Source of the DNA: a virus
Direction: 5' to 3' (one strand)
Length of the DNA stretch: 64,000 nucleotides
Virus record (IMG/VR): IMGVR_UViG_3300029037_000169
In this document: positions 865 through 64,000 of the stretch, piece by piece
Layout of the letters: each line of letters opens with the position of its first letter
Numbering within the stretch: the first letter of the stretch is position 1
The notes under the pieces: generated by a model
The model's database searches: none
Told to the model about the DNA's origin: nothing
Seen by the model: only the letters and a program-made list of their open reading frames with translations
Program-made: the position numbers and the translations under genes

Positions 865-879
865 GTGGAGATGGAGAGA
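865..879. repeat. left prophage junction (attL core), 15-bp direct repeat GTGGAGATGGAGAGA
   Basis: Exact 15-mer repeated at 60919..60933 where it forms the 3' end of ssrA (minus strand). Confidence 0.65.
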
Positions 880-1038
880 CCATAACTTATACTATCATAC
901 AGTATCAAACAATATCATATGCGCTCATGTTCAATACATTCGTGTGTTTTTAAACAGTCAACAAATATCATGTAATATCATATGATGTCATGTTTTTTGC
1001 GTGTAAATTCGCGTAGTTACACGCAACACGTTTTTATC

Positions 1039-2319
1039 ATGGAAATAAAGAGGAGCATAACATTCGAGATAGAGAAAAGAAGGAAGGAGGGGGAATTGAT
1101 TACCAAGAACGTCCCCATCAGGTGCGTGGTGACATTCAACCGGAACAGGATCACGCTCTCCACGGGGCACAGGATAGACGCTAATAAGTTCATCCCGGAG
1201 AAAGGTATCGTCAAGAACGGATGCTTCAACAAGGCCGGGGAAAGCTCGTCCGAGATAAATTCCGATCTTGACGATATACGTGCCACATTGCAAAATATAT
1301 TCCGCCAATACGAGAGAGAGGGCGAGATGCCTAGATCCAACGATATCAAGGAAAAGTTCAAGGTTGCGACAGGCCGGGCGAAGGAGGAAGAGAGGAAGCC
1401 GGTATCCCTGTTCGATATCTACAAGGAGTTTATCGATACGGTAGGGAGGCAGAACGCATGGACGAAGACATCGCACTACAAACATAACTCGATCATGCAC
1501 CTTCTGGAGGAGTTCAATCCACTGATCAAGTTCGATGACCTGTCGGAGGATACCTTGCAAGACTTCGTAGAGTTCTTAAGGGAATACAAAGGTATAAGGA
1601 ATACCACGTTGAACAAGTACCTGCACTTTATAAAGCAATTCCTTTTATGGGCCGACGACAAGGGATACAACACGAGAAAGGACTATCGAAGGTTCAGCCC
1701 AAGGCTTAAAGGGGCGAACTTCGATCTGAAGAAAGTCATATACTTGACATGGGAGGAACTGATGCGTATATATAATATGTATATAAAGGAAGGGACGTTA
1801 TCCACCGTCCGTGACGTTTTCTGCTTCTGCTGCTTCACCGGCCTCCGTTACTCCGACGTATATAACTTAAGGAAGACAGATATCATTAACGGGAAGATTG
1901 ACATCGTGACACAGAAGGACAGCGACAACATACAGATCGAGTTGAACAAGTACAGCAAATCAATACTTGATAAATACGAAGACATCAAGCTCAAGAACGG
2001 GAAGGCGCTGCCGGTCTTGTCCAATCAGAAATACAACATGCATCTAAAGGATCTCGGCAAGATGGCGGAGCTGGACTCCGAGATAACCGAGGTATGGTAC
2101 GAGGGCAACAAGCGAATACAGCAGACATTTCATAAATGGGAACGGCTTACTACCCATGTCGCCAGAAAGACATTCGTCGTCAACGCCCTTATGCTAGGCA
2201 TCCCCCCTCAAGTTATCATGAGATGGACAGGGCACAACGACCTCAAGGCCATGAAACCTTACACTCATATAGTGGATAAGCTGAAGGAGGACGAGATGAG
2301 CAAGTTCGATAAGATATAA
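1039..2319 (+). CDS. int: tyrosine-type site-specific integrase (ORF opens at 982; probable start 1039 MEIKRS)
   Basis: C-terminal catalytic signature HVARKTF...RWTGHNDLKAMKPYTHI (R..H..R..Y); position adjacent to attL. Confidence 0.85.
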   Translation: MEIKRSITFEIEKRRKEGELITKNVPIRCVVTFNRNRITLSTGHRIDANKFIPEKGIVKNGCFNKAGESSSEINSDLDDIRATLQNIFRQYEREGEMPRSNDIKEKFKVATGRAKEEERKPVSLFDIYKEFIDTVGRQNAWTKTSHYKHNSIMHLLEEFNPLIKFDDLSEDTLQDFVEFLREYKGIRNTTLNKYLHFIKQFLLWADDKGYNTRKDYRRFSPRLKGANFDLKKVIYLTWEELMRIYNMYIKEGTLSTVRDVFCFCCFTGLRYSDVYNLRKTDIINGKIDIVTQKDSDNIQIELNKYSKSILDKYEDIKLKNGKALPVLSNQKYNMHLKDLGKMAELDSEITEVWYEGNKRIQQTFHKWERLTTHVARKTFVVNALMLGIPPQVIMRWTGHNDLKAMKPYTHIVDKLKEDEMSKFDKI

Positions 2320-5817: not shown

Positions 5818-5891
5818 GGCCCTTTAGCTCAGCGGAACAGAGCGACGGTTTCCTAAACCGCAGGTCCCGGGTTTGAGTCCCGGAAGGGCCA
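5818..5891 (+). tRNA. tRNA-Arg (anticodon CCT), phage-encoded
   Basis: Cloverleaf: acceptor GGCCCTT/AAGGGCC, D arm GCTC..GAGC, anticodon loop TTCCTAA, T arm CCGGG-TTTGAGT-CCCGG. Confidence 0.75.
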
Positions 5892-6288
5892 CTAAAAAAG
5901 AGTTCTTTGACTTATTGAATAAAATCCTTACCCCCATAAGAGGATATACGTAAGAGATATAGGTATGGTGGTAAGGTTATGATAGTCGAAGATACCGGAA
6001 GGGATGATGATCCCCGCTCCCGATGTAGTTTGATCGGTTCCGATGTTGGAGTCTACATATTTAATAATGTATAACAGTACGATCCCATTCGGGTATCCTT
6101 GCGGTGGATGGAGAAGAAGACCGTATCGTACTAAATAATACGACTTTTCCTACGAGTCGTATCTAAGATATAGTAGGAGGTTAATACGGCCAAAAGTATG
6201 ACAGATTGGACAGACAATCATAAGATGACGACAGATCGGAAAGACGATCAAGCCGAGAACTCCGGCTTTGCATGAGTTGATTAAGACT

Positions 6289-6346
6289 CCCCCACCCGTC
6301 TATGATTCGGGTTCTCGAAACCGTTGGAGGTTGTGGGGGGGAGCTA
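6289..6346 (+). repeat. structured ~55-bp direct repeat, copy 1 (CCCCCACCCGTCTATGATTCGGGTTCTCGAAACCGTTGGAGGTTGTGGGGGGGAGCTA)
   Basis: Near-identical copy at 7326..7379; outer 7-bp stem CCCCCAC/GTGGGGG; lies ~25 nt upstream of an ATG. Confidence 0.7.
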
Positions 6347-6372
6347 TTATAAATAAAAAGGAAATGTAAATC

Positions 6373-6570
6373 ATGCAGAAAAAAGTGGAAAGCAAAAGAA
6401 AGATCAGAGAAATGAAAGTATCTGAGAAACTATCCTTCCCTATAGAAGTGTTGGAGACGGTTAGAAATAACGTGTCTCTGTTAAACGCTAAGTATTATAG
6501 AGAGGGAAGGAAATGGTCTTCCGTATCAAACAAGGAAGAAGGGATCGTTTATGTCAGACGCTTAACATGA
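6373..6570 (+). CDS. hypothetical protein
   Basis: ORF with AAAGGA RBS-like sequence downstream of repeat copy 1. Confidence 0.35.
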   Translation: MQKKVESKRKIREMKVSEKLSFPIEVLETVRNNVSLLNAKYYREGRKWSSVSNKEEGIVYVRRLT

Positions 6571-8036: not shown

Positions 8037-8111
8037 GCTCCCTTAGCTCAGTTGGTCGAGAGCATCCGGCTCATAACCGGGAGGTCGCTGGTTCAAGCCC
8101 GGCAGGGAGCA
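8037..8111 (+). tRNA. tRNA-Met (anticodon CAT; could be tRNA-Ile2 if lysidinylated), phage-encoded
   Basis: Acceptor GCTCCCT/AGGGAGC, D arm GCTCAGTTGGTCGAGAGC, anticodon loop CTCATAA, T arm GCTGG-TTCAAGC-CCGGC. Confidence 0.75.
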
Positions 8112-8180
8112 CGTTTCACCCCTAGAGGGTGCTTATTCATCTATTTTTAAGTCACAAATAGTTTTAGACATTGCAACGCA

Positions 8181-8614: not shown

Positions 8615-9250
8615 ATGAAGACATTCGAGGAATTAAAGAAGGATCTGCTTGAACGGGCTAAAAAACATAACGCTTGTCAAGATGGATACAGGATGGGGTT
8701 AAACGCAAAAAGCAAACAAGATTTGCTGAAAGCAATAACCAATAATTGGTATTGGGTCTTGAGTGCATCCAAGATGATTGACGCAAATTACCTAGAAAAT
8801 AACTTTTCTGAAGAGGAATTAGCCGAAGCCGGTATTTACACAAGAAAAGAACACACCTCTAATGCTAAATCATTTGCTTGCGGCTCTGCCACGGTCGAGG
8901 CTTACGGCTCTGCCACGGTCGAGGCTTACGGCTCTGCCACGGTCGAGGCTTACGACTCTGCCACGGTCAAGGCTTACAACTCTGCCAAGGTCGAGGCTTA
9001 CGGCTCTGCCACGGTCAAGGCTTACGACTCTGCCACGGTCGAGGCTTACGACTCTGCCACGGTCGAGGCTTGCGACTCTGCCAAGGTCGAGGCTTACGGC
9101 TCTGCCACGGTCAAGGCTTACGATAACTCATATGTTGAGGATTGCACAGGGAACATAAATACAGTTTCCGATCATGGAATAATCAAAGATTACTACAATC
9201 ATAAGATATATATAAAGAAAGGAAAATTCGAGATTATTGAGATCGAATAA
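8615..9250 (+). CDS. protein with eleven tandem 8-aa repeats (G/D-S-A-T/K-V-E/K-A-Y)
   Basis: 24-bp DNA unit GGCTCTGCCACGGTCGAGGCTTAC x11 in frame; globular N-terminal 90 aa. Confidence 0.55.
   Translation: MKTFEELKKDLLERAKKHNACQDGYRMGLNAKSKQDLLKAITNNWYWVLSASKMIDANYLENNFSEEELAEAGIYTRKEHTSNAKSFACGSATVEAYGSATVEAYGSATVEAYDSATVKAYNSAKVEAYGSATVKAYDSATVEAYDSATVEACDSAKVEAYGSATVKAYDNSYVEDCTGNINTVSDHGIIKDYYNHKIYIKKGKFEIIEIE
8881..9144 (+). repeat. 24-bp tandem repeat array (x11) inside CDS 8615..9250
   Basis: Direct reading of sequence; all three frames open across it. Confidence 0.9.
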
Positions 9251-9637: not shown

Positions 9638-10300
9638 ATGGACAAATCAGAAGAGATTGACAAATTAGCCATAGCGTTGGCCAAGTTCCAAGGGTCGCTA
9701 GAGCAACCAAGCCTCAATTCAGAGGTCAAGGTAAAGACTAAAACTGGACTAGAGTACAAGTTTAAGTACGCGGACCTATCCGAATGCAAAAGGGCGGCGA
9801 AACAACCATTAGCCGATAACGAGCTTGCTGTATGTCAGCTAATAGAGGATGATTACTCTATCCGGACCATACTGCTTCATTCCTCCGGCCAATGGATATC
9901 GTCCAAGGTAAGGATGCCATCCAATACGGCGGACGCTCAATCCATAGGATCGGCCATCACGTACGCCAAGAGATACGCCTTTTGCGCCATCCTTGGCATC
10001 GTGGCCGACGATGACGAGGACGCTAACATAGCGAACGGTAATACCGCCCAAAAGGAGCTGCCTAAAAAAACGGCAAGCTCAAACCAGAAGAAAGAGCTTA
10101 CGAGAGATCATATAAACAACGAGAGCGCCATGAAATCCATATCGGAGTGGATATACAAGAACGAGAAGAAGGCCAAGGAATCCAACCAGCCCTTCTCCGT
10201 GGAGAGCCTTATAAACAAGGCTTACATCGCCGGAAAGGTTGAGATGGAATCCATTATCGAGATATACAACAACTATAAAATAAACAACAACCTGTCATGA
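9638..10300 (+). CDS. erf: Erf-family single-strand annealing protein (recombinase)
   Basis: ITYAKRYAFCAILGIVADDDED matches P22 Erf core SSYARKYCLNGLFGIDD. Confidence 0.75.
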   Translation: MDKSEEIDKLAIALAKFQGSLEQPSLNSEVKVKTKTGLEYKFKYADLSECKRAAKQPLADNELAVCQLIEDDYSIRTILLHSSGQWISSKVRMPSNTADAQSIGSAITYAKRYAFCAILGIVADDDEDANIANGNTAQKELPKKTASSNQKKELTRDHINNESAMKSISEWIYKNEKKAKESNQPFSVESLINKAYIAGKVEMESIIEIYNNYKINNNLS

Positions 10301-13784: not shown

Positions 13785-13861
13785 GGTATCGTGGGTCTAA
13801 TGGTAAGACCACTCCGCCAAAAGACGGAGAGATGCAGATTCGAATCCTGCCGATACCACCA
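13785..13861 (+). tRNA. tRNA-like gene with encoded CCA and non-canonical 8-nt anticodon loop lacking U33
   Basis: Perfect 7-bp acceptor GGTATCG/CGATACC+A+CCA, D arm GGTC-TAATGGTAA-GACC, T loop TTCGAAT, but anticodon stem CTCCG/CGGAG encloses CCAAAAGA. Confidence 0.55.
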
Positions 13862-14045: not shown

Positions 14046-14396
14046 ATGAGGAATATCGAATCACAGACCCAGCAAGCTTGCGTCAGATACTTCCGTCTCC
14101 AATACCCGAGATACGCCGGATGCTTCTTTAGCGTCCCGAACGGAGGACGGAGGGACACGGTAACCGGGGCGATACTGAAAGCGGAAGGGGCATTGGCCGG
14201 GGTCGCCGATCTGTTCCTGTCAGTCCCGAATAACGTCCATCACGGTCTGTACGTGGAAATGAAGACAAGAAAAGGCCGGCAACAGGACAGCCAGAAGGCA
14301 TTCCAGAAGGCGGTAGAGGCTCAAGGATACAGATATGAGATATGCCGATCGCTGGACGATTTCATCGCGCTTATAAAAGACTACTTGAATGGCTAA
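14046..14396 (+). CDS. VRR-NUC domain nuclease (PD-(D/E)xK)
   Basis: ADLFLSVPN...YVEMKTRKG catalytic D..E.K arrangement. Confidence 0.65.
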   Translation: MRNIESQTQQACVRYFRLQYPRYAGCFFSVPNGGRRDTVTGAILKAEGALAGVADLFLSVPNNVHHGLYVEMKTRKGRQQDSQKAFQKAVEAQGYRYEICRSLDDFIALIKDYLNG

Positions 14397-14541
14397 GAAA
14401 CCTACCAAGCAGCCCGAGCGTATCAGATGCGCCGATTGCGTGCACGGCAAGCCTCACAAGGGTCTGGCCGTATGGTGCGAGATACTGAACACCGGAAGGG
14501 TAGCGAACTCCTTCCGGTATTGTGACAACTATAAACGATAA
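14389..14541 (+). CDS. small zinc-finger-like protein (50 aa)
   Basis: CADCVHGKPH...C...C; overlaps VRR-NUC stop. Confidence 0.3.
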   Translation: MAKKPTKQPERIRCADCVHGKPHKGLAVWCEILNTGRVANSFRYCDNYKR

Positions 14542-14546
14542 CTTAT

Positions 14547-14735
14547 ATGAGAACGATCAAAGCGAACACGAAGGCAAACGGGGATATACTCCCGGAGCCT
14601 CAATTCAAGAGGATACCCGTAAGGGTTGACAAGAACACGATCATCCTCGTAAGGGAGGGGTTGAACGTGGAAGAGCATCTGAAAAGATTCAAGGACAAGG
14701 ATAACACGCCTCCGGGATATATCCCATGGTTCTAA
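14547..14735 (+). CDS. hypothetical small protein
   Basis: ORF only. Confidence 0.3.
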   Translation: MRTIKANTKANGDILPEPQFKRIPVRVDKNTIILVREGLNVEEHLKRFKDKDNTPPGYIPWF

Positions 14736-14759
14736 AAAAAACTTCAATTTGTTTGGCAT

Positions 14760-14975
14760 TTTTAATTTGAGTTGTATCTTTGCGGTGATTCAAGACCAAG
14801 GAATCACTACATAGTAAACTTGTATGCGGCATTTTTTATGTCGTTACTACAGCTATACCTGCAAAGATATAAGCCGTTGGTTTCCCTGTTGGCTGCATCA
14901 GTTTATCTAATGTAGTGTTCCTTGGTCGGAGTTGGGAGCCAGCGGCTTTCTTTATATAACTCAAATTTCATCAAA
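14760..14975. promoter_or_regulatory. regulatory region with two divergent Bacteroidetes-type TAnnTTTG (-7) elements and three copies of GACCAAGGAA(T/C)CAC
   Basis: TATCTTTGC at 14773 (+) and its complement at 14858 (-); motif at 14801 (+), 14907 (inverted), 14964 (+). Confidence 0.45.
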
Positions 14976-15206
14976 ATGACCAAGGAACATGAAATTGCGA
15001 GTGTAACGAACAACAGTAATTGCACAACCACGTCAGCTCACGAAACGAGCATCTTCTCATGGCGCACAATCGCCAAGCTATTAACCTTCATATCATCCGG
15101 ATTGCTCGAATGCGATAACCGGGATGATGTTATAGGCTATGTAAAGGTTCTCATCTTATTAATGACAGCTTTCATATTAGCAGGAATGGAAGGAGGTGCG
15201 TTATGA
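14976..15206 (+). CDS. small C-terminal-TM protein, paralogous to 63139..63342
   Basis: ~80% DNA identity over ~150 bp to the flank gene; shared C-terminus SWRxIAKLL...LLECDNRxDV.GYVKVLILLM.AFILAG.EGG. Confidence 0.45.
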   Translation: MTKEHEIASVTNNSNCTTTSAHETSIFSWRTIAKLLTFISSGLLECDNRDDVIGYVKVLILLMTAFILAGMEGGAL

Positions 15207-15460
15207 ATACGCTTACCCAACGTCAGCAAACCATCCGTATCAACCGCCTATCCAAGGAGAACGACCAGCTCGCCAAGGAACTTGAGCACGTGAAGAACCA
15301 ACTCAAATGGTCACGCATCACGTCCTCGCAAGAGACGGAGCTAAAGAACTCGTGTTTCTTCTTCATGGTGTCCAAGGGGATATTCACCGAATGGCACGAG
15401 TGGCACGACAGGAGGATAACCGAGAGGTTGATGGACGAGATCAAGAGGACTATCAAATAG
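15203..15460 (+). CDS. hypothetical coiled-coil protein
   Basis: ATGA overlap. Confidence 0.4.
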   Translation: MNTLTQRQQTIRINRLSKENDQLAKELEHVKNQLKWSRITSSQETELKNSCFFFMVSKGIFTEWHEWHDRRITERLMDEIKRTIK

Positions 15461-15732
15461 CCCTACCCTACTCACGTATTAAGATTTTAAAAGCCCCGGT
15501 TCCGACCGGGGAGTATATAGTACACTTTAAAATTAAGCAATCATGGACATAAAGAGAATGTCAAACAAGGATCTCAAATATGGCATAGACCGATGCAACG
15601 CAAGGTTGGCCGGGATAATGCCAATGGGATACATGGACAAGGAGCGATGCCTTAAGGCGTTGGAGCAATATAGGGAGGAATTGTATAATAGAGGAATAAT
15701 ATATTGACTAATAATATAAAACATATAGTGAC

Positions 15733-15936
15733 ATGAGTACATTTATGAAATTCATATCAGAATCTAAGCCTTGTGTAGCATTAGAGGTAAGCCCATTAAG
15801 CGAATCTGATGAGTGCATAAGTTTTTTCATATCTGAATATTCGGACTACATGACCAAAAGCGTAGAAATAAGTAAGGATGATATTAGAAGATTGATAAAG
15901 TTCCTAAAAGAGGAATTGGAAAATGCCGACAACTGA
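15733..15936 (+). CDS. hypothetical small acidic protein
   Basis: ORF only. Confidence 0.3.
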   Translation: MSTFMKFISESKPCVALEVSPLSESDECISFFISEYSDYMTKSVEISKDDIRRLIKFLKEELENADN

Positions 15937-16828
15937 TATGGATAAAGGATTTATCATGTTATCCCGTAAATTATTTTCTCACAGAATATGGAAAGCATCC
16001 CGGACTTTTAGCGAGTGCGAAGCGTGGATAGACTTAATACAGTCAGCACGATTTGAGGCAACGCAGCTTAAGGCTAGTATCGGAGGTAGAGAAATAACAT
16101 ACGGAAGAGGACAATATCCAGCATCCATAAGTTTTCTTTCCAAAAAATGGAAATGGGACTCAGAGAAAAAGGTCCGAAATTTCTTGGACATGCTTAAAAG
16201 GGACGGAATGATAACAACAGACGCATCCCAAGGCATGAATGTGATAACTCTATGCAATTATGATTTATACAACCCTATAAATATAGACAAGGGCGAGGAT
16301 AAGGGCAAGGGTAATGGCATAGACATAGAACAAGAAATCAAGGACTTAAAGCTTTCTTTGGGCGAGCTAAGGGCAAGCCTAGGGGCAAGTGACGAAAATA
16401 AAGGGCAAGGTAAGGGCAAGAATAATAATAAAGATAATAATAATATACCCCCTACCCCCAAATCGGGAGGTGCCGTCACTTCCGTTCCGGACACGGGCGA
16501 TAACCCTGAGACAGAAAAGGAGAAAACATGGAAAGATGATTTCAGCATCTATTTGGATTTAGTCCGTAGCGCATATAAGAGCATATGCGACGATCCAAAG
16601 ATCATGGAGACTCAACAATCCTATTATCCCGGCGTAAACATAAAACTATCCCTAGAGAAGGCTTGCACAAATTTCTGGGCAACAGACGCAGGATGGAAGC
16701 ACAAGAAAAAAAGCAGGGCCAAGGAGATTGACATGAGAATGACATTGATTAACGCAATAGATAAAAACAAGGTTTATTATGGCAAGAACGAACACCGCAC
16801 AGATCTCACATACATCGTCCCCGATTGA
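15923..16828 (+). CDS. putative replication initiation / helicase-loading protein
   Basis: Sits immediately upstream of and overlapping dnaB; low-complexity K/G/N linker. Confidence 0.4.
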   Translation: MPTTDMDKGFIMLSRKLFSHRIWKASRTFSECEAWIDLIQSARFEATQLKASIGGREITYGRGQYPASISFLSKKWKWDSEKKVRNFLDMLKRDGMITTDASQGMNVITLCNYDLYNPINIDKGEDKGKGNGIDIEQEIKDLKLSLGELRASLGASDENKGQGKGKNNNKDNNNIPPTPKSGGAVTSVPDTGDNPETEKEKTWKDDFSIYLDLVRSAYKSICDDPKIMETQQSYYPGVNIKLSLEKACTNFWATDAGWKHKKKSRAKEIDMRMTLINAIDKNKVYYGKNEHRTDLTYIVPD

Positions 16829-29254: not shown

Positions 29255-29734
29255 TCACCCTCTCTTATTAATGATCCACCATAACATGGCCGCAATCATT
29301 CCTCCTACCAACAGATACCACCATACCCTAGGATGGATAAGCCTCGTTTCCTTATCCACGTTTATCGTTTCTCTCTCATCGGAGACGACCGTCTTGTTAT
29401 TCGTCCGTACCTCTGTCATATCAGATCCGGTCGAAACGATCTTCTCGCCGGATTCCTCTCGCTCCTTACCTATGGTTATATCTGAGGTCTTGACTGGATA
29501 CTGGTTCCCCACGCTGTCTGGAGAAGACCACTCCACGACCAAGATCCGGGCGCTCAATCTCTCGTTAGATAATATCCGCTCTATGGCCGAAAGGCTGTCT
29601 TTTTTAAAGATACTATCCGATAGACTGACACTTGCAGTGGTATGCCTTTCCGTATCCGTGGATTTCTTGGAGGTTCCACAGGCACAGAAAAGGCATAACA
29701 ATATGACGTACCATATTCTCATAGCAAGTTCCAC
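29255..29734 (-). CDS. putative unimolecular spanin (N-terminal lipoprotein signal + C-terminal TM)
   Basis: ILLCLFCACG signal/lipobox region; C-terminal WWYLLVGGMIAAMLWWII TM; last gene of lysis cluster. Confidence 0.45.
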   Translation of the reverse strand: MELAMRIWYVILLCLFCACGTSKKSTDTERHTTASVSLSDSIFKKDSLSAIERILSNERLSARILVVEWSSPDSVGNQYPVKTSDITIGKEREESGEKIVSTGSDMTEVRTNNKTVVSDERETINVDKETRLIHPRVWWYLLVGGMIAAMLWWIINKRG

Positions 29735-30129
29735 CCAGCTATAACGTCCGACATTTCGGCCTCCCTACCGTTCTCGACCCGACTCATACCAGCGACAATA
29801 CGGATCATCTGCTCACGATCGTTGATATTTACAGGATCGTCAGCCGGTATCCCGGCGTAATCGGACACGGCCTTAATGTAAGCGTCCGTATCGTTCTCGT
29901 TTTCCGGTGCCCAGCGACCGATCATCTTGCGGATCGTGTCCAAATTATAGTTGTTATAGTAGTTACGCAAGATCCGGAATATGGCACGGTAGCCATACGC
30001 CATCGTCTCAAACTGTTTGAACGACTTGTCCTTGCTCGGACGTATCTCACCTTGGAACAAGTCTCCGTTGATCCGGATGTTTCCCGGGTTGTTGTTCCGA
30101 TACCCACGAGGTAAATTATTTTTCCCCAT
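29719..30129 (-). CDS. putative endolysin / cell-wall hydrolase (family not recognised)
   Basis: Sits between holin-like and spanin-like genes with overlaps; RGYRNNNPGNIR motif. Confidence 0.35.
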   Translation of the reverse strand: MGKNNLPRGYRNNNPGNIRINGDLFQGEIRPSKDKSFKQFETMAYGYRAIFRILRNYYNNYNLDTIRKMIGRWAPENENDTDAYIKAVSDYAGIPADDPVNINDREQMIRIVAGMSRVENGREAEMSDVIAGWNLL

Positions 30130-30132
30130 ATT

Positions 30133-30609
30133 TTACTCTCCTTTCTTCTTTTTATTCATGGCATTGGATAAAGCGTTTGTCAAAGCGTCCTCCAAAACCT
30201 TTTGCGTTACAACCTTACCGATCATGTCGGCTGTCTTACTCGCCTGCCTCCTTTGTTTGGCGTCAGCCTTCTCCCAGATAGACCGAACCTCCGTTATCAA
30301 GATAAATACGGTCACTATCGAGGATACGACCGGGACATTGGTCAAGAAAGGCAGATGGATAAATTCCCAGAACCGGCACACGTAGCAAACCGAGTCTATC
30401 CCGCACGCTATACATACGCTACCAGCGTAAAGTATGAACTTACTGACCGTCCTACGCATGCCATACGAATTACGCTCCTCGCCCCTCAATTTAGCCTTGT
30501 AATAACCCGAGGCGAAATCCCACCCCATCGCCACCATAACGATGAACATCTCAAACACGACTACAGTCAGTAGCTCCCTCATACTGCAAATCATTTTAAA
30601 AAATTCCAT
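30133..30609 (-). CDS. holin-like protein (3 TM + charged C-terminus)
   Basis: Three hydrophobic helices then K/R/D-rich tail. Confidence 0.5.
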   Translation of the reverse strand: MEFFKMICSMRELLTVVVFEMFIVMVAMGWDFASGYYKAKLRGEERNSYGMRRTVSKFILYAGSVCIACGIDSVCYVCRFWEFIHLPFLTNVPVVSSIVTVFILITEVRSIWEKADAKQRRQASKTADMIGKVVTQKVLEDALTNALSNAMNKKKKGE

Positions 30610-30634: not shown

Positions 30635-31027
30635 TTATAAAACCACTATGCTCTCCTCCTCTCTCGCCGCCTCCCACTCGGCGAAATCGCTATCCACACG
30701 GTCTTTCAACGCCTTCCTCTCGTTAAGGAACGTCTTATAAGACTCCACGTATGACAAGTCCAATATGCCTAGCTGGGCGGCGTTGTAGTCGTTCAGCTTC
30801 TTTTGCTCCACGTCCTTGTCCCATAGGGCGTTGATACAGGCCTCCAATATCTTGTTGGCAGTTAACGTGGCCCATATCCTGACCTCGTTGTAACTATAGG
30901 AGATCACGGGGGCCATATCGTCACCCATCTCCCTTGTCTCCTCTCTAACGTCCCACCGGTACAGGTAGGAACCGTCACCGTCCCGCTCTATTTTAGGCGG
31001 CATTGTGTCGCTCCATGATCGCTTCAT
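30635..31027 (-). CDS. hypothetical protein downstream of RT
   Basis: ORF overlapping RT start. Confidence 0.4.
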   Translation of the reverse strand: MKRSWSDTMPPKIERDGDGSYLYRWDVREETREMGDDMAPVISYSYNEVRIWATLTANKILEACINALWDKDVEQKKLNDYNAAQLGILDLSYVESYKTFLNERKALKDRVDSDFAEWEAAREEESIVVL

Positions 31028-32054
31028 AAAACTCTGGTTTTAAAATTTTCTTAGCTAAATGCTTGCTATCGCTATCATATATCCAGCCCAGCCAACCGGC
31101 TAGACCTGCCTTGTATTCCGTTAAGGATATATTCGGGACTTTATTCAATCTAGCCGCCGCACGACATAGATTTTGCTTAGTCCTCTTCCTTATCCGTATA
31201 TGCTCCTTATAGAAAACGAACCCCACGAAATCTATACCACGGCCGCTTTTATCCGATCTTCTCTCAGCGATCTTAAATATCTGGTAATTCCCTTTCAGCT
31301 CCAACTTCAACACGGTCAACCTATCGATAAGCCACGGAAGCAATACGTTTCTCAAGAAACACTTATCATGATGGAAAAAAGTCATGTCATCCGCATATCT
31401 GATATAATGCTTTATATCTATAATCTCCTTTATCTCGTGATCCAGATAGGCGAGATAAAGATTCGCAAGATATTGGCTAAGATAATTCCCGATCGGAACG
31501 CCGGGAGCGGAATCGATGATCTCATCCAACAACATAAGCAAGCGATCGTCCTTGATCTTCTTCCGAGCTATGCCTTTCAACACTTCATGGTCTATTGACG
31601 GATAGAATTTGCGGATATCAACCTTGAGGCAATAGGCGGATTCACGATCGGACAAAGCCCGTCTTGTCCTTTTATACGCCTCCGTTATCCCTCTTCCCTT
31701 GATACATGATGTCGTGTCAGAAGTGAATATGGAAACCCATATAGGTTCCATGACGTTCATTATAGCATGATGCAATATCCTGTCCGGGTAATAAGGAAGC
31801 TTGAATATGACCCTTTCTTTAGGCTCATAGATGATATCAGTCCGGTACTTGGAAGTCTTGAACGTGCCATCCTGCAAAGACTTTAGCAAACGGCTGAGAT
31901 TACCTTCTTTGTCCTTGTCAAACAACCTTATGCCGTAGGAATCCTTCTTCCCCCTCCGAGCCTTGATGTCTGCCAGTATCAAGTTATCCATATTCGCTAT
32001 CTTATCAAATAAATTTCCTATTCTCTTCATTGTCATCAATTTGCTTTTTATCAT
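30993..32054 (-). CDS. diversity-generating retroelement (DGR) reverse transcriptase
   Basis: YADD catalytic box (IRYADDMTFF); DGR-specific IGNYLSQ in place of QGxxxSP; ~350 aa; adjacent TR. Confidence 0.85.
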   Translation of the reverse strand: MIKSKLMTMKRIGNLFDKIANMDNLILADIKARRGKKDSYGIRLFDKDKEGNLSRLLKSLQDGTFKTSKYRTDIIYEPKERVIFKLPYYPDRILHHAIMNVMEPIWVSIFTSDTTSCIKGRGITEAYKRTRRALSDRESAYCLKVDIRKFYPSIDHEVLKGIARKKIKDDRLLMLLDEIIDSAPGVPIGNYLSQYLANLYLAYLDHEIKEIIDIKHYIRYADDMTFFHHDKCFLRNVLLPWLIDRLTVLKLELKGNYQIFKIAERRSDKSGRGIDFVGFVFYKEHIRIRKRTKQNLCRAAARLNKVPNISLTEYKAGLAGWLGWIYDSDSKHLAKKILKPEFYEAIMERHNAA

Positions 32055-32161
32055 AGGGAGTCTTCGGTTCCCCTACCAACACCCTTTATATGGGGAGACT
32101 TTTTTCGCCAAGAGGCGAGGCCACCATCCCTGTTTGTTCCCTAAATATCTTTCCCCTTTCT

Positions 32162-32278
32162 TAAAAGTATAGGCGTGAACCGATGTTACGATTCGCATCG
32201 GAAGGCGCATTATTCGTATTCACGTTAGCGAGGCCTGCATTCGACCTGTTGTCCGCGTTACCGCCAACCAGCACCACC
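32162..32278 (-). repeat. DGR template repeat (TR)
   Basis: 117-bp homology to VR 32727..32843; every mismatch (~18) is at a TR plus-strand T, i.e. an A on the coding minus strand. Confidence 0.85.
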
Positions 32279-32302
32279 TAGGGATGATCGACCCTTATTC
32301 CG

Positions 32303-32644
32303 TTATTCGAGATAATACCTGTTCCCGGAGGCTCGCATCGTCACTTTCCTCGGGAACTTGTCCATCTCCTTTATCTTTCCAAGCACGTACTTGATCTCTT
32401 GGGAATTCGTAAAGAATTTCTTGGCATCACTGTCCTTGTCCTCGATATTGTTCTTGATCATAACGAGTGCCCGGTCCTTCCCAAACTTGGTGGACACGCC
32501 GTCCATGTAATCAATGACCCAGAACGTGAGGTTCGTCAACTTCTGTTGGGTGATCTCCGGACAATTAAAATGCCTTGAGTTCTTATCCCTTGGGATGTTC
32601 AAGAATGACAAGCTGCCATCGTCTTTATTCTTATTTTCTTCCAT
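32303..32644 (-). CDS. DGR accessory variability determinant (Avd) candidate
   Basis: 113-aa ORF positioned between target gene and TR, the canonical avd slot. Confidence 0.45.
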   Translation of the reverse strand: MEENKNKDDGSLSFLNIPRDKNSRHFNCPEITQQKLTNLTFWVIDYMDGVSTKFGKDRALVMIKNNIEDKDSDAKKFFTNSQEIKYVLGKIKEMDKFPRKVTMRASGNRYYLE

Positions 32645-32697
32645 TTCATATTGTTATTTAATTGTTATACAAAATATTTCCGACGTGATACGTGCGG

Positions 32698-35600
32698 CTA
32701 CGCCGACGTTTTACGAAATTCGGGGAAAAAGCAAAGGCGCGAACCGAAGTGACGAAACGCAGCGGAAGGCGCATTATTCGTACCCACGTGAGCGAGGCCC
32801 GCAGCCGACCCGTCGTCCGCGCCACCGCCAACCAGCACCACCTGTAAGCGGTTGGCTTGCGTATAGGTGTAGTAATAGTCGCACCAGTAGGTAGAGCTAC
32901 TACCGCCGACCTCCGTAGCCACGATATCCCCATCTTCCCCAAGTAACATCTTCTTGGCATAACCATTGGTACGGCAGATGTTACCTTTCTTGTCATAACC
33001 TGTGTAAGATGTATCGCTGAAGTTTGACGGGTCATCGGTAGTCCATAGGATAGACAATCCGGAATCACCCGTGGTGACTTGTATGTTGGCCCCATCGGTG
33101 TATTTCCAGATATGGCCGAACGGGTTCTCTATGCCACGGTACCTGTTAGCCATCAACGTGGCGTGAGTACCACCGGAGGCGTTCTTCACGACATACGCCT
33201 TCTCTCCCGAGCCGTTCCCGAACTCGTTGGTATAGCCGCATGGGATAAGAGGATTGGCGTTGTTGAAGTTCGTCCAATCCGTCATTTGCGTCGGTCCCGG
33301 ACCTAGGCCGCCTTGGGCGAAACCGTTAGCGTCCTTCTGGGCGTTGAAAGGTTTCTGGCTGTCCAGCGTGGCGTACTCGACGGCGAATAACCAGAACAGG
33401 ATCTTGTGGGCGTTATAGGTGTACATTTCCCAGCCGCTGCCACGTTTCCTAGCGGCTTGCCGGAATTGGTCTCGGGTGAGGTTGGTGACGGGGCGGCCGA
33501 GTAGGGAACGGTAGGTATCATCCCATTCAGCGGTGTTGTCACCACCTCTAAAATTAGTTGAATTAGGATCACTTAATTTACTAGCTCCAGCCGCCGAACA
33601 TAATAAATTATCGGTTCTATACATTCTGGCTTCATATGTTGAGATATAGAACTTATCTACATGTTTATACCCAGGTAATGGAATTTCGGACAACATCTTC
33701 CTAAATTTAGTGCCATTAAAATACAATTTATACCAATGTTCAGGTATCTCTGTCATAACGGCATAATCCAAATAGCTTCCACCCCATGAAAGCTCATTAT
33801 CCAAATATTCTTTAACTCCACCATCTCTATCCAAAAGACACCTTCTCATCTTACTCTGCACCGGCAACTCCCGATGTAGTTGCATATTACCCACACGCTT
33901 CCCGTCCGGGCTTGACGATGCCATGTCCCACTCTACACCGTAGGCGTACCGCTCCTCTATATCCGGGATGTCCTCCCAAGCGGGGGTCCACTCGGTGGAG
34001 ATGTCACCATATTCAAGTTTAATCTTATGGATGGTGGAAGTTGATGTGCCAGTTTTAGGAGAACTAAATACAACCATATGTGTATTATCAGCTACTGCAT
34101 CTCCGATATTAGTAATCCATTTAAAAGTCTTACTGGCCTTCCCATTCACAAAGTCAGCCTTACTGAACTGAGCCATAGAACCTACTGCACCAGTAGAGTT
34201 ATATATAGTGAACATTTCCTTATCATCACCCAATTCTCCAAAAATAGTCAATGTTACTTGTGTTCCTTTAGATATCGGTTCAGTTAGCCAATAATCAGCG
34301 ATATTGTAATTCGAGTTACTCACCTCCTTCCCTGATCCCAGCAACAGGTTCCTGCCGTACACGGGCAGCTTGCGGTACTTGCCATCAGCCATCAGAGACT
34401 TATCCTTGTCCCCCTTGGTCTCCAGCGTTATCGACACGTCCGGATCTTCGTTTTGGGCCTTGTCCGGCGTTATGGTTATCTGGCCGTTAGACGGGGTGGA
34501 TGTGACAACGGGCTTTAACTTATTAACGTCCGTCCTTAGACCGGTGACCAGATTCCGGATATCCGTATCGTCGTAATTATCCAATCCATCCAACTTACCC
34601 TTATCTTCGTCAGTATAATTATTGTCCGTATGGACGTAATTAGCGTCCTTTACGATGTGATCGTCATTTGTTAATTGGGATGTCTTGGTTGGGATCAAAG
34701 CCGTTATCTCCGCACGCAAGTCATTGAGAAGACCGGTTAGGGTTTCCTTATCAGTAATACCCTGCAAAAAAAGCTCGATCTCATGGAAGGTATCTATAGC
34801 GTCGCTCGCTCCATCACCCAATAACGTGTCGATATCCGCCTTGATAGAGGCGATCTCACTCCTGACCCATTCATCATCATAGTTGGATAAGCCGTTGATC
34901 TTAGATAACAGCTCATCCGTAAGGTCGTTTGTGCTAAGTCCCTTCCCTTTGATCTTCTCGACAAACCTATCGTCAATCTGTCCGGACGTGTAATAACCTG
35001 ACAAGATACTCGTGACCTCCGCAAGTATTTGTTTTTTCAAATCCAGCAACACTCCGGCCATATCCTTATCCTCTGTCATACCGGACAAGAACTCCACCAC
35101 CTCCTGCCATCTGTTGATGATATTGTCCGCGTCCGGATCTCCCGTTATAAACGTGGACAGATCGGAAGCAACTTTCCTTATGGCCGTGTCAAGATCCCCC
35201 TCTACCTCCTTCGCCCTGCTGATCTCGGAGGTTAAAGCCTCTCTTAACGCCGTGTCATCGTAATTACTCAATCCGTCGAGCTTTTTCAAAAGAGCGTCCG
35301 TCAAGTTGTTATCCGTATGCGTGTAATCGGCATCGGTTACGATATTATCCGGGAGAATGGGTATCCCTAACTCCTCTAGGGACTTATCCCCGACCAACTC
35401 AACCCCGTTGATCCGTGGTTTATTGGTCATACTTTCATAATCTCCGGTCCCTACGGCAGGAACGGAGATATCTCCCGTTAGCCTTACCGTTGTCACCTTG
35501 ACGCTGCCACATCCCGTATCTCCACCTACGGAGCACGACCGTGGGATAAGACGGAACGCATCGCAAGCGTCTACGGTGTACATGCCCTCCTTCCCTTTGT

Positions 35601-55585: not shown

Positions 55586-55598
55586 AAATCCTCCTTCC

Positions 55599-60676: not shown

Positions 60677-60918
60677 ATTTTCGTAACTTTAAGTTACGCA
60701 CCTGTCCCGCAAATATAATGAATAATATACATGACGGCTACACTGTATCCATAAAATATGTTATTGATCATAATTGGGAGTTGAGAAGGAAAAACGTTAT
60801 ATTTGTCACGATGGAGAATTAAGACATCAAAAATCCTATAAAAAAACGCCTTTTACGTGTATTTTTACGTGTAACAACAAAAATAGCCTTGACAATCAGT
60901 AAATTACCAAGGCTATTG

Positions 60919-60933
60919 TGGAGATGGAGAGAT
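60919..60933. repeat. right prophage junction (att core) = 3' terminal 15 nt of ssrA
   Basis: Identical to 865..879. Confidence 0.65.
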
Positions 60934-61315
60934 TCGAACTCTCGTCCAAACGAGGAATTAATTTGCTTTCTACATGTTTATCTTCGCCTTCATTGTCGGG
61001 GAAGAGCAAGACCGAAGCCACCCACTCATCCCTTATCCTCTAAAGTTTCGCCTGAGACCCGAGGCTTATCTCAAACTATCTCCGATATTGCTGCACCACC
61101 TGATCGGAACGCTTCGGAGCCACAGCATCCGGGTGATGTCACGTCCCCGCAACTTTTGCAGGGATTAAGCTTGAATCTACTATACTTCGATTAAGCAGCG
61201 AGAGCGTAATTATTTTCGCCAGTTAATTGTTCGTTGTCTGAGATTTAAGTGCAAGCCAACCACGCACTACATGCTTACAAACCACTTCTACCCGCTGTCA
61301 AAACCGGTCATCCCC
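60919..61315 (-). ncRNA. ssrA: tmRNA (ssrA) with tag peptide GENNYALAA
   Basis: 5' GGGGATGACCGGTTTTGACAGCGGG; tag ORF GGCGAAAATAATTACGCTCTCGCTGCTTAA (61191..61220, minus); 3' tRNA-like GAGAGTTCGAATCTCTCCATCTCCA. Confidence 0.85.
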
Positions 61316-61551
61316 ATGGTTTTATAACTGATTAAAAATCAAAAGAAAGCGAAGATGTTTCCGTTTATGGGTAACAAACTGGTAACAAAATTAAAGAACT
61401 TTTCCTTCAAATAATCGCTTTCTTTGGTGCAAAGATACAGATTAATCTGGATTTGCCAAATAACAGGCCGCATAAAGGCTAAATTCCTCCAACATATCAC
61501 CTATCACATTTTTGTTACTCGTTTGTTACTTACCTGTATTCCGTTGCTACC

Positions 61552-61620
61552 ATCTCCGTCAACCTCTATGTTTCTCATCCAAATAATTGCACAGGTTACG
61601 GGGTTACGGTTACGGTGATA
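61552..61620 (+). repeat. ~68-bp direct repeat A with GGTTAC iterons
   Basis: ATCTCCGTCAACCTCTATGTTT...CACAGGTTACGGGGTTACGGTTACGG; partner at 61886..61953. Confidence 0.6.
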
Positions 61621-61826
61621 CCATACGTGTTATAAATCAATAAATTAAGCGCATTTATACCGTAACCTCAACATTCGTACCCGGCATTCCATCAAAGGAC
61701 AGGCTCAAAGACCGTGCCGGGTGTGGCTGGAGCTACTGAAAGCCTATTTAAACGCACATAGCGTCACCACATATCCAGTGAAGCCTATGCAATCGAAATA
61801 AGACCGCTCTCACGATATTTACCCAA

Positions 61827-61849
61827 GTTGACAGGTTGACGGTTGACTG
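61827..61849 (+). repeat. triple GTTGAC tandem motif (GTTGACAGGTTGACGGTTGAC)
   Basis: Complement CCGTCAACC occurs in both 68-bp repeats. Confidence 0.5.
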
Positions 61850-61885
61850 CATATTATCAATCTATTAATCAGATATTTATACCCA

Positions 61886-61953
61886 AATCTCCGTCAACCT
61901 CTATGTTTATCTATAAAATAAACACACAGGTTATCAGGTTATAGGTTATCAGA
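61886..61953 (+). repeat. ~68-bp direct repeat B with GGTTAT iterons
   Basis: AATCTCCGTCAACCTCTATGTTT...CACAGGTTATCAGGTTATAGGTTATCAG. Confidence 0.6.
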
Positions 61954-62182
61954 CAGCAAATGCATTGAATTTCAAGCCATATACCCCCTTTTAAGGTGAT
62001 AACCTCTAATATCGATCTGCTTATGTCCTGTATCTTCACCTCCAGCTATGAACGTTGCTGGTTAAGTGTGCATTTGTCCCTTGACGCAATCTCGCTTTGC
62101 GTTGTCCGGTCGTTCCGGTCCGCAAGGGTGTCCGGTAGGCAATATTACCTACCGGGCATCAAACTTCCGATCGCCGTTCCCG

Positions 62183-62473
62183 TCATGAGGCATTTCCTTT
62201 CTCGATCACCCTCAGAAAATCCCTCACGCAAGACACGGCCCTCATCTTATCCATGATGTCCTTGTCCTCGTAGCAACCCTCGCAACTCAACTGGATGAGC
62301 GTGTCTATCATATCGCCCATGTCCTCGGAGAACAGGTAACCGGACATGTCCTTTATCTCTTTCATCATTTCCGGGGTGATGCTCAATCCTCCGATCACCA
62401 ATTCCGAAGCCTCATTAATCTTGATCTCGTTCTCGCCGGCTCTCACGACGATGTCCTTAATTAAATCTTTCAT
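62183..62473 (-). CDS. hypothetical protein downstream of ECF sigma factor (anti-sigma candidate)
   Basis: Operon position only. Confidence 0.3.
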   Translation of the reverse strand: MKDLIKDIVVRAGENEIKINEASELVIGGLSITPEMMKEIKDMSGYLFSEDMGDMIDTLIQLSCEGCYEDKDIMDKMRAVSCVRDFLRVIEKGNAS

Positions 62474-62487
62474 TTTTCTTGTAGTTA

Positions 62488-62967
62488 TTAAAATATAGAT
62501 CTATTAAGTAATTTGAAAACGCTCTTTCTCTGGAAAAATATGCGGCTCTTTACCGTACCTATGGCTTTCTTTGTCCGGTCGGATATCTCCAGATAGTTAT
62601 ACCCTTCAATGAATAACGAAAGCTCGATCATCCCCTTGTCACGCATGACCCTGTCAACTCTTTGGTACTCGTCCCTTATGTCTTGGAGTATATCGCCGTC
62701 CTCCAGCATATCACACGCATAAAGTGCCGGATCGTCCACGGGAACCGGCTTGTAGCGCAAGCATTGATTATGATATAGATGTCTCATGATAACGGCACAC
62801 CAGCCCCTAAAGTTGTCACCATACCGGAACTTATCGAGGTTATCCAATATACGGATATTGGTATCTTGCACTAGGTCTTTCGAGTCGTTGACGTTCCCGC
62901 AAAGATGGAAGGCGTAAGCGAATAGGTACTTTTGGACGTTCTCCAGTCGTTTTATGTTACTTTCCAT
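62488..62967 (-). CDS. ECF-type RNA polymerase sigma-70 factor
   Basis: Region 2 (FRGWCAVIMRHLYHN) and region 4 HTH (GYNYLEISDRTKKAIGTVKSRIFFQRK). Confidence 0.65.
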   Translation of the reverse strand: MESNIKRLENVQKYLFAYAFHLCGNVNDSKDLVQDTNIRILDNLDKFRYGDNFRGWCAVIMRHLYHNQCLRYKPVPVDDPALYACDMLEDGDILQDIRDEYQRVDRVMRDKGMIELSLFIEGYNYLEISDRTKKAIGTVKSRIFFQRKSVFKLLNRSIF

Positions 62968-63139
62968 ATCTGCCTCCTCTCAATGGTATCATCGTGGCCT
63001 TGACCGGGGTCTTTTCGCCTTTTAACTCACGGATATCTCGTTGTAGCTCCATGAACTTATCAAATAACTTATTGTAGTCCTTTGCTAGGCTAATAACAAA
63101 GTCCTTATAAAGCTGGATGTTTTTTTGAATTTCTTCCAT
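62957..63139 (-). CDS. hypothetical small coiled-coil protein
   Basis: Overlaps neighbours. Confidence 0.35.
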   Translation of the reverse strand: MEEIQKNIQLYKDFVISLAKDYNKLFDKFMELQRDIRELKGEKTPVKATMIPLRGGRYGK

Positions 63140-63342
63140 TATAGCGACCCTCCTTCCAGCCCGGCCAAAATGAATGCGGACATCAATAAGATTAGTACCT
63201 TGACGTAACCGAGAACGTCGTTCCTGTTATCGCATTCGAGCAAGCCGAATGACAATACGGTTAATAACTTGGCGATGGATCGCCATGATAAGACATTTAT
63301 AGACACCTGTCTTTTGGCTTGTTTTCCTAATGATAAATACAT
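63139..63342 (-). CDS. small C-terminal-TM protein, paralogue of prophage gene 14976..15206
   Basis: Shared ~150-bp DNA segment and C-terminal 50 aa. Confidence 0.45.
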   Translation of the reverse strand: MYLSLGKQAKRQVSINVLSWRSIAKLLTVLSFGLLECDNRNDVLGYVKVLILLMSAFILAGLEGGSL

Positions 63343-63393
63343 AACTTGATTTTTATAATCGGGGGTGCCGAGAATTCGGCTGCCCCCCTTTGT

Positions 63394-63705
63394 TTAATAT
63401 ATCGTGATTAGATTCTCTACCTTGAATGACCGGAACCCGTTCGCCTCAACGTCAAAGTAACGGACGGTCTTGTAATTTTCCGTACCTGTACCTTTGATGA
63501 GGTTCTGAACGTCCTGTAACGTTCCTTTCGCCTTTCTCAAGCTTCCATCCGCTTTCTCGTAAGCGAATGTTACTATTTCCCGGCGCATCCGCTTGGTGAG
63601 GCGGTACAACGCCCACGCCTTGGACAGGCATACCGCAAATGCCTTTCCCGTTGCTCTCATAAGCTCATGAGCCTGTTTGAATACTTTTGTCCTAAAATTC
63701 TTCAT
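63394..63705 (-). CDS. hypothetical protein with terminator hairpin (GGGGGCAGCCGAATTCTCGGCACCCCC) downstream
   Basis: ORF and hairpin at 63343..63390. Confidence 0.4.
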   Translation of the reverse strand: MKNFRTKVFKQAHELMRATGKAFAVCLSKAWALYRLTKRMRREIVTFAYEKADGSLRKAKGTLQDVQNLIKGTGTENYKTVRYFDVEANGFRSFKVENLITIY

Positions 63706-64000
63706 GATCGTATAGTTTTATGTGTTAGTAATCCGTTTACGCTATGTACATCCAATATTCACGAATGTATGTCTCTGCCTCTTTCTCTGTCATAGCCTCT
63801 AGTTCGGCTAGCTCGTTGTTCATGTAATCCTCGTTTGTCATAGCTGTATATCTGTTTGTTTTATTTTGATAATGCAAAGATAATGTAATACTTTATACAA
63901 TACAAGGGCAAAGTAAAGAATTACATTACAATTAACACTATTTAATAATGTTATTCTTTATACATCTATTATAAATGAAAAGAATTACATTATATTTGCA

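Follow-up and report, generated by a model that had tools for sequence, protein, structure and literature searches.

The 64,000-nucleotide stretch of viral DNA in IMG/VR record IMGVR_UViG_3300029037_000169 (hereafter the window, meaning the whole stretch) carries a gene for a small membrane protein twice. Copy A lies within a prophage, and copy B lies on the opposite strand in a separate element near the right end (Table 1). The two copies probably diverged within a single uncharacterised family of small proteins of the inner membrane, which mobile elements of Bacteroidales carry, and are not a phage gene and a host gene.

The two copies and their family

An earlier note on this DNA had described a duplicated gene with about 150 bp at roughly 80% DNA identity, and measurement bears this out. 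Both open reading frames (ORFs) are real, and the repeat covers 153 nt at 78% identity (15052-15204 against the reverse complement of 63141-63293). No other inverted repeat of the 64-kb window is as long, the runner-up having 34 nt. The products align without gaps over 52 residues, with 40 identical and 49 positive (BLASTP, E 1e-30), and their common C-terminal core of 49-52 amino acids (aa) has 77% aa identity. Similarity sets in inside the ORFs and ends at the stop codons, and the N-terminal tails are unrelated (variable residues 1-27 in copy A). The 33 nucleotide differences fall 11, 1 and 21 times on the first, second and third codon positions, and the ratio of nonsynonymous to synonymous divergence (dN/dS) is 0.066 at a dS of about 1.45, with synonymous sites near saturation. 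The codon-position skew and the low dN/dS argue for constrained coding homology. A low-complexity hydrophobic match, which the note had named as the possible artefact, does not account for it, since the conserved block takes in polar positions (SWRxIAKLL...GLLECDNRxDVxGYVK) besides the hydrophobic helix. The copies are old and diverged and stand under strong purifying selection at the protein level.

The presence of two copies 48 kb apart in one window could suggest a recent duplication, or a transfer between prophage and host chromosome in this genome, but this explanation is already refuted. The near-saturated synonymous sites speak against any recent event within the genome, the flank that holds copy B is a mobile element of its own, which occurs in many contigs that lack the prophage, and copy B resembles the alleles of other phages (91%) more than it does copy A (77%). 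Across the core, the usual phage allele and the satellite allele agree at about 91%, and the phage allele of the window is an outlier at 77-85% to all others. In every locus examined the family stands in a phage or a satellite-like element, and the gene exchange between phage and host that had been proposed is not supported. As a duplication, the A/B pair is ordinary mosaicism between mobile elements.

This mosaicism extends to both ends of the gene. There are three types of N-terminal tail and three types of downstream partner ORF, the latter mutually unrelated, and tails and partners are swapped by modular recombination among mobile elements. In some related phages the promoter, leader and N-tail are retained, but a single 78-aa ORF with weak similarity to the partner replaces the membrane core and the partner. 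The phage can therefore do without the membrane core.

The family comprises about 90 sequence clusters. A profile from both copies gives 51 close clusters, and an exhaustive profile search gives 41 representatives at 50% identity, with the core consensus FSWxxxAxxxNxLPxGxxECxTxEDAKGYxKVLxxxxxAFxxAGxxEGGAL. Pfam, PHROGs and NCBIfam have no match to the membrane protein above family threshold, and the hits below it are noise (DUF6136, 13 bits; DUF202, 15 bits). The exact copy B protein was found on 55 contigs, and the family in 38 IMG/VR loci. It also occurs as gp11 of the cultured Bacteroides phage BF1-TP2 (L005, PQ571263; on B. fragilis), for which a search of the open-access literature found no paper. 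In the deposited annotation of that phage (5898-6570), gp11 is extended upstream to 118 aa and gp12 is called in the wrong frame; the conserved partner ORF there is 6251..6508 (85 aa). A diverged phage (L054) has the order VRR_NUC, membrane protein, partner, replication initiator and DnaB, as in the window prophage. Pattern scans of genome contigs for the family gave no confirmed relative, and one for the host junction gave no exact match.

At least three satellite-like lineages carry the family as well. One is the element that holds copy B (L001). The second (L058, P. distasonis CP051672) is another P. distasonis element, which adjoins a tRNA gene and recO and has a different integrase and a DnaB module; it has only the repressor-to-sigma module in common with the first, at about 90% identity. 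In the third (L109, 2783-6500), genes for the membrane protein, a partner and a sigma factor lie beside an HK97-type capsid gene and a small-terminase-like gene.

By hydropathy, there is a single strong helix at the C terminus (2.2-2.4) besides a weaker, amphipathic one, and an AlphaFold2 (AF2) model of copy A places helices at residues 29-43 and 51-72 with low confidence (predicted local distance difference test, pLDDT, 58). In the core, an acidic loop joins an amphipathic helix to a C-terminal transmembrane helix, which has an AxxxAG motif and is followed by a 5-residue tail. Because Lys/Arg residues precede the membrane helix and only ExGGxL follows it, the protein is predicted to be tail-anchored with its N terminus inside.

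Coupling sites and a structured leader

The stop codon of each copy overlaps the start of its partner ORF (TTATGA, 15201-15206, in copy A; TAATG, 63137-63141, in copy B), and the Shine-Dalgarno (SD)-like motif GGAAGGAGG lies 6-8 nt upstream of the partner start in both, as expected from the translational coupling that the earlier note had read from the sequence. Among 25 distinct gene tails, distant homologues included, all 25 have the last codons (G/A)A(A/G) GGA GGN, with AGGAGG invariant and the first Gly codon always GGA; in the same tails, the partner ATG follows 6-8 nt after the motif and overlaps the stop. SD-like motifs stand at only 9 of the 97 ORF starts in the window, one of them that of the major head gene. 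The strong AGGAGG motifs (15188-15196, 62970-62978, 63147-63155 and 55589-55602) mark overlapping junctions and the major head gene. The junction between the satellite partner and the sigma factor has the same design, with GAGAGGAGG and an 11-nt overlap. Bacteroidetes genes generally lack SD sequences, so the invariant AGGAGG likely has a function, and the conserved EGGAL C terminus is probably a consequence of it.

The two partner ORFs are not homologous to each other. The phage partner has no family match, and a family search gave only close relatives without annotation; its homologues are found in the diverged phage L054 (E 8e-13) and in BF1-TP2, with which similarity stops at the partner stop codon. 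Homologues of the satellite partner, recognisable as 'MEEIQK' partners, occur in L043, L058 and L109.

The phage cassette has its own promoter of the Bacteroidetes primary-sigma type. The full consensus occurs five times in 64 kb, against 1.15 expected, and the 32-nt promoter block hardly varies across 52 further viral contigs and L054. Between this promoter and copy A lies a leader that is a candidate for a new cis-regulatory RNA, with mutually exclusive helices and compensatory changes on the transcribed strand. Its minimum free energy is -63 kcal/mol (z -4.5 against shuffles; -5.9 for the L054 leader), and the architecture recurs in about ten sequence variants, which all have the long closing helix, a hairpin whose loop is rich in U and a second, small hairpin that carries a U-tract. 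The closing helix P1 extends to 25-35 bp and contains nested covarying hairpins.

Three leader elements, A, A' and A2, may exchange partners. A' is the 3' strand of the closing helix, and it is perfectly complementary to A2 at the start codon over 9-12 nt in 10 of 10 variants (reached in 1-40 of 2000 shuffles for each variant). MAFFT alignments of the whole leader misalign one arm or the other, and covariation was therefore counted on motif-anchored windows. A:A' is 87% paired, with compensatory changes in 9 of 13 pairs (0 of 500 shuffles), and A':A2 is 91.5% paired, with compensatory changes in 8 of 13 (0 of 500 shuffles); slid controls fall to 31-50% for both. RNAalifold independently selects A':A2. 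The full-length leaders are predicted to have an open start (P unpaired 0.55-0.97). A second class of leader (L071, L109, L112) is unrelated in sequence and follows the same logic, with A2 at -14..-2 and G.U wobble in A:A'.

The three elements might instead be DNA operators for a phage-specific DNA-binding protein: they are three copies of 10-13 bp, direct and inverted, and they vary between phages as immunity-specific operators do. We consider this improbable. G.U pairs number 21 against 6 A.C mismatches and occur on the sense strand only, and hairpin 1 has 1-4 G.U pairs per variant and folds much worse as its reverse complement. The G.U excess and the sense-only folding favour an RNA element over DNA operator repeats, and the length of P1 with its nested covarying hairpins and the G.U pairs that class-II leaders use specifically in A:A' also argue against operators.

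A search of 14500-15600 against Rfam gave no match; relaxed to E <= 1, it added only two eukaryotic hits, both due to chance. Copy B is without such a leader; 51 nt with a hairpin separate it from the upstream WYL_2 gene. An invertible promoter (inverton), suggested by what looked like inverted repeats around a promoter box in the leader, was also considered and rejected, as a flipped inner segment was present in 0 of 32 and later 0 of 82 loci and the variants are colinear. Most class-I leaders carry an antisense TATCTTTG box (14862-14869 in the window), which lacks a -33 element and does not occur in class II; an antisense promoter in the leader is a weak lead.

Such a leader would also suit a membrane-damaging peptide of the type I toxin or viroporin kind, whose translation the folded RNA (possibly with an antisense RNA) would restrain and for which the partner would be a modulator. 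Type I toxins are stand-alone peptides of less than about 60 aa with one transmembrane helix and a cis- or trans-encoded antisense RNA. The single hydrophobic helix with its AxxxAG motif, the elaborate sequestration of the start codon and the antisense box fit this picture. The length of 67-76 aa exceeds that of typical type I toxins, however, and the gene is always coupled to a downstream ORF, the satellite copy sits in a leaderless operon, the start codon is predicted to be open in the full-length leader, and the antisense box has the deficiencies just given. We rate a toxin of this kind as quite unlikely.

Insertions at both ends of ssrA

The sequence to the right of ssrA, the gene for transfer-messenger RNA (tmRNA), had been taken for chromosomal flank. 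Contigs without the prophage, or without both elements, reveal it (61324..64000) as the right-hand part of an insertion of 11,191 bp with 26-bp direct repeats at both bounds (L001 855-12045). These contigs were found through the exact copy B protein and the neighbouring M23 peptidase, which is named as a Parabacteroides distasonis protein and so identifies the host. They include contigs with both elements (L002), with the small element only (L001, L003, L004) and with neither (L045, L047, L049, L050). The empty order is M23 peptidase, ssrA and GH3 glycosidase, and in L001 the element lies between ssrA and GH3. The suggestion of a second related mobile-element remnant upstream of ssrA thus holds as to a second element. 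It does not hold as to a remnant, since the integrase, HTH_17 protein, helicase/primase, repressor and sigma operon are kept, nor as to relatedness: the membrane-protein core and a weak integrase similarity are the only significant sharing with the prophage by blastn (word size 7), tblastx and phmmer. No homologue of the sigma factor, WYL_2 protein or satellite partner was found in the prophage, and the repeated motif TCTCCGTCAACCTCTATGTTT of the element is absent from it.

The element encodes, in order, a 390-aa tyrosine integrase, an HTH_17 protein, a DUF3987 helicase/primase, a PriCT_2 primase and RusA. A cI-like HTH_19 repressor lies on the strand opposite to an early operon that consists of a small ORF, WYL_2, copy B, the 60-aa partner, a sigma factor and a 96-aa ORF. 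Neither Pfam hits nor a PHROG scan of the ORFs without assignment revealed a virion, terminase or lysis family in it, and eight small ORFs remain unassigned. Phage satellites of the phage-inducible chromosomal island (PICI) and P4-like types are about 7-18 kb long and have a site-specific integrase, attachment (att) repeats, their own replication module, a divergent master repressor and few or no virion genes. The element agrees with them in size, integrase, att repeats, primase/helicase, divergent repressor and the absence of detected virion or lysis genes, and we interpret it as phage-satellite-like. Searches of the open-access literature for Bacteroides satellites or ssrA prophages yielded no description of such elements in Bacteroidales.

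Two independent insertions, one per end, thus flank ssrA, and the one at the 5' end, where the 3' end would be usual, swaps its promoter. The native promoter of ssrA now stands at the opposite, integrase-bearing end of the element, and a consensus promoter brought by the element lies upstream of the gene. In further strains (L044, L048, L052, L053) this 5' site is taken by different islands, which carry defence-type genes. The non-coding right end of the element contains a 55-nt repeat (61552-61606 and 61887-61941, 335 nt apart) followed by iteron-like runs of GGTTACG/GGTTATC, which could be origin, packaging or arm-type sites. Operator-like repeats (63910-63997) lie upstream of the early operon.

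The operon of copy B, as first noted, includes a sigma factor that resembles the extracytoplasmic function (ECF) kind; this 159-aa protein aligns over its full length with NCBIfam ECF-type models, at scores below their curated cut-offs. This arrangement raises the question of whether the membrane protein and its helical partner form a split anti-sigma factor or sigma chaperone for the ECF-like sigma factor, with the phage homologue acting on a host or satellite sigma. The order of membrane protein, helical ORF and sigma factor, with overlaps and GGAGG motifs, is kept in three lineages that differ in integrases and replication genes. Anti-sigma factors of the ECF group, however, have a cytoplasmic domain (zf-HC2 or RskA type) and a gene that is normally downstream of the sigma gene. 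Here the membrane-protein gene is two ORFs upstream of sigma, no anti-sigma family of Pfam or NCBIfam matches its product at E <= 0.1, the phages have the membrane protein and no sigma homologue, and the phage and satellite partners are non-homologous. We regard a sigma regulator as unlikely.

The other insertion is the 60-kb prophage, whose place in ssrA had been correctly recognised. A 15-bp att core is repeated at its ends, and the empty-site contig L001 joins window position 879 directly to 60918, which identifies 880-60917 as a prophage in the 3' end of ssrA. An HTH_3 regulator follows the integrase gene. Copy A lies between a recombination module (ERF, VRR-NUC) and a replication module (DnaD-like loader, DnaB), and the LAGLIDADG domain within DnaB suggests an intein. 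An AntA antirepressor, an endolysin/holin pair, a reverse transcriptase, the major head protein and terminase follow in this order. A holin role for the membrane protein is excluded by position, as the endolysin and holin-like genes (29719-30609) lie 14.5 kb from the cassette.

Further features of the prophage touch neither copy. A diversity-generating retroelement (30993-35823) includes a 117-nt repeat of the template/variable type (32163-32279 and 32727-32843, 85% identical), with the second copy in the 3' end of a 1041-aa gene. There are genes for tRNA-Arg(CCT), tRNA-Met and an odd tRNA in which ARAGORN reads the four-base anticodon 'aaaa' (5818-5892, 8037-8112 and 13785-13861), and there are repeats that resemble tRNA 3' ends (9298-9338/9593-9633 and 6315-6339/7350-7374). 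About 15 tandem copies of a 24-nt unit (8828-9187) inside the ORF 8615..9250 encode an 8-residue protein repeat.

Table 1. Positions of the features discussed, in window coordinates
Feature	Position	Strand	Remarks
Prophage att core GTGGAGATGGAGAGA, 15 bp	865..879, repeated 60918-60932	+	Repeat comparison
Prophage integrase	982..2319		Domain matches
ERF recombinase	9638..10300		
VRR-NUC	14046..14396		
Phage cassette promoter TTTG-N19-TATCTTTG	14752..14782	+	Bacteroidetes primary-sigma consensus
Structured 5' leader, ~190 nt	14784..14975	+	Folding and covariation
Leader closing helix P1	14787-14933		
Leader element A	14794-14804		
Leader hairpin 1	14826-14844		
Leader element A'	14916-14927		3' strand of closing helix
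Terminator-like hairpin with U-tract	14934-14950		~25 nt before ATG
Copy A, small membrane protein, 76 aa	14976..15206	+	Real ORF; conserved core 15057-15203
Element A2, start codon region	14978-14989		Includes codons 2-5; complementary to A'
SD-like GGAAGGAGG	15188..15196	+	In last codons of copy A, 6 nt before partner ATG (15203)
Phage partner ORF, 85 aa	15203..15460	+	All-helical; AF2 pLDDT 75, helices 6-36, 41-57, 60-84
GC-rich hairpin just after phage cassette	15493..15511	+	Not a canonical terminator on + strand
DnaD-like loader	15923..16828		
DnaB helicase, 802 aa	16779..19187		LAGLIDADG homing-endonuclease domain inside
Endolysin	29719..30129		
Holin-like gene	30133..30609		
Reverse transcriptase	30993..32054	-	
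Rfam RT-17 RNA	32037..32122		
ssrA (tmRNA)	60918..61315	-	ARAGORN; Rfam RF00023, 138.8 bits
Right-hand 26-bp direct repeat AAAACCATGGGGATGACCGGTTTTGA	61298..61323	-	Empty versus filled sites; covers first 18 nt of tmRNA and 8 nt upstream
Element-borne consensus promoter, now upstream of ssrA	61430..61460	-	Consensus scan
Last ORF of satellite early operon, 96 aa	62183..62473	-	Homologue in L109
ECF-like sigma factor, 159 aa	62488..62967	-	Sigma70_r2 E 9e-11, r4_2 E 0.009, phrog_1740 E 9e-15
Satellite partner ORF, 60 aa	62957..63139	-	Overlaps copy B stop (TAATG)
Copy B, small membrane protein, 67 aa	63139..63342	-	Core 63142-63288; in satellite-like element
WYL_2 (Sm-like SH3 barrel) protein	63394..63705	-	PF10902 E 4e-23; phrog_1086 E 2e-24; directly upstream of copy B
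First small ORF of satellite early operon, 34 aa	63737..63841	-	-7-type TATCTTTG box and operator-like repeats upstream (63880-63997)

Proposed role and comparison with known systems

Our best guess is that the membrane protein is an accessory inner-membrane effector or tether of early lytic growth. It would be inserted as a tail-anchored protein and act at or within the cytoplasmic membrane, probably through helix-helix contacts made by its AxxxAG motif, and the stop/start overlap behind AGGAGG would keep it in fixed proportion with its small cytoplasmic helical partner. In phages, a dedicated promoter would drive the cassette and the sense-strand leader RNA would gate its expression, with the start codon open when A' pairs with A and closed when A' pairs with A2. 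In satellites, the gene would be chained by overlaps to a partner and the ECF-like sigma factor within a repressor-controlled early operon. The protein would most likely serve the early lytic programme in host takeover, exclusion or the tethering of a regulator, and it would be dispensable for the phage and harmful if mis-expressed. An early effector or tether is favoured because the protein appears to be tail-anchored with a conserved helix, dispensable, tightly gated and common to mobile elements.

Several points weigh against parts of this interpretation. The N-in/C-out topology is read from hydropathy and charge, and the AF2 model of the membrane protein is of low confidence. Conservation of the EGGAL end may reflect the embedded AGGAGG and the overlapping start rather than protein function. 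In the leader, the windows on which covariation was counted were anchored on a conserved CCA/TGG motif of our own choosing, and removal of 45 nt from the 5' end gives a predicted closed start in 6 of 9 variants, not in all. The satellite-like nature of the flank element is judged from its gene content, and no pac- or cos-like DNA shared with the prophage was found in it.

The cassette could alternatively be a 'moron' for superinfection exclusion or lysogenic conversion, an autonomous unit of promoter, leader, two ORFs and hairpin that would be expressed from the prophage to block DNA entry or abort a competing infection, with the satellite copy serving the same purpose. Its own consensus promoter, its sharp boundaries against BF1-TP2, its dispensability in related phages and the sharing of a membrane protein among mobile elements are all compatible with this possibility. 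We nevertheless find it doubtful: the PADLOC set has no match to either copy or either partner, and the satellite gene has no promoter of its own and lies in an operon divergent from the cI-like repressor, where it is presumably silent when the element is integrated. A bolder extension of sigma control is that membrane protein and partner form a device that is tethered to the membrane and controls the ECF-like sigma factor, which would define an undescribed family of Bacteroidales satellites, and that the phage copy, behind a new three-element riboregulator, interferes with this device or competes for it. We rate this a long shot; if true, the gene common to both would mark a conflict between helper and satellite.

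The surrounding biology of a satellite-like sigma element at the 5' end of ssrA, a membrane-protein family and a candidate riboregulator is moderately novel. Compact elements with integrase, primase and sigma factor in Parabacteroides and Bacteroides have the anatomy of satellites, which are hardly documented in this phylum. Their regulatory core always includes a small membrane protein under strong constraint, which is found across gut Bacteroidales phages too, and its presence in BF1-TP2, which is cultured on B. fragilis, makes the gene genetically testable. The candidate cis-regulatory RNA has covariation support, and the SD-like coupling sites are conserved in organisms that do not normally use them. 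The map of the region is corrected as well, with two independent insertions at ssrA and a replaced ssrA promoter.

Among known systems, the flank element resembles PICI and P4 satellites in its size of about 11 kb, its place beside a t(m)RNA gene, its HTH_17/AlpA-like protein, its divergent cI-like repressor and its lack of virion genes. It also adjoins a complete temperate phage in the same host, and its cousin L109 has a capsid gene and a small terminase, as do capsid-forming PICIs. Unlike these satellites, it has an ECF-like sigma operon as its conserved core, is inserted 5' in ssrA and supplies that gene with a new promoter, and no packaging signal, gene for capsid redirection, means of derepression or dependence on a helper was identified for it. 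The satellite membrane protein, itself small and single-pass, recalls pairs of ECF sigma and single-pass anti-sigma factors in that its gene is transcribed together with that of an ECF-like sigma factor and chained to it in translation. It differs from them in its upstream position, the lack of an anti-sigma domain, the second small soluble ORF that intervenes and the sigma-less phage copy.

The leader has parallels in the tac, ucb and dcb elements of hok mRNA and structures A and B of lambda cIII mRNA, which are leaders with alternative pairing that gate the translation of small proteins. The phage leader shares with them three mutually complementary elements that hide or free the start region, and it likewise would control a small, possibly harmful protein. 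Unlike hok and tisB, it is predicted to be open at full length and closed when shortened at the 5' end; it also has two sequence-unrelated classes with the same logic, no Rfam family and an antisense partner that is only conjectural. The phage cassette as a whole resembles the morons and small early membrane proteins of lambdoid phages, such as HK97 gp15 and lambda SieB, Kil and CIII. It is likewise a small accessory gene with its own promoter, placed between modules near recombination genes, and it is membrane-associated, dispensable and mosaic in distribution. It differs from the lambdoid genes in having no sequence or family relation to them, in its constant coupling to a helical partner and in being a fixed part of a satellite operon.

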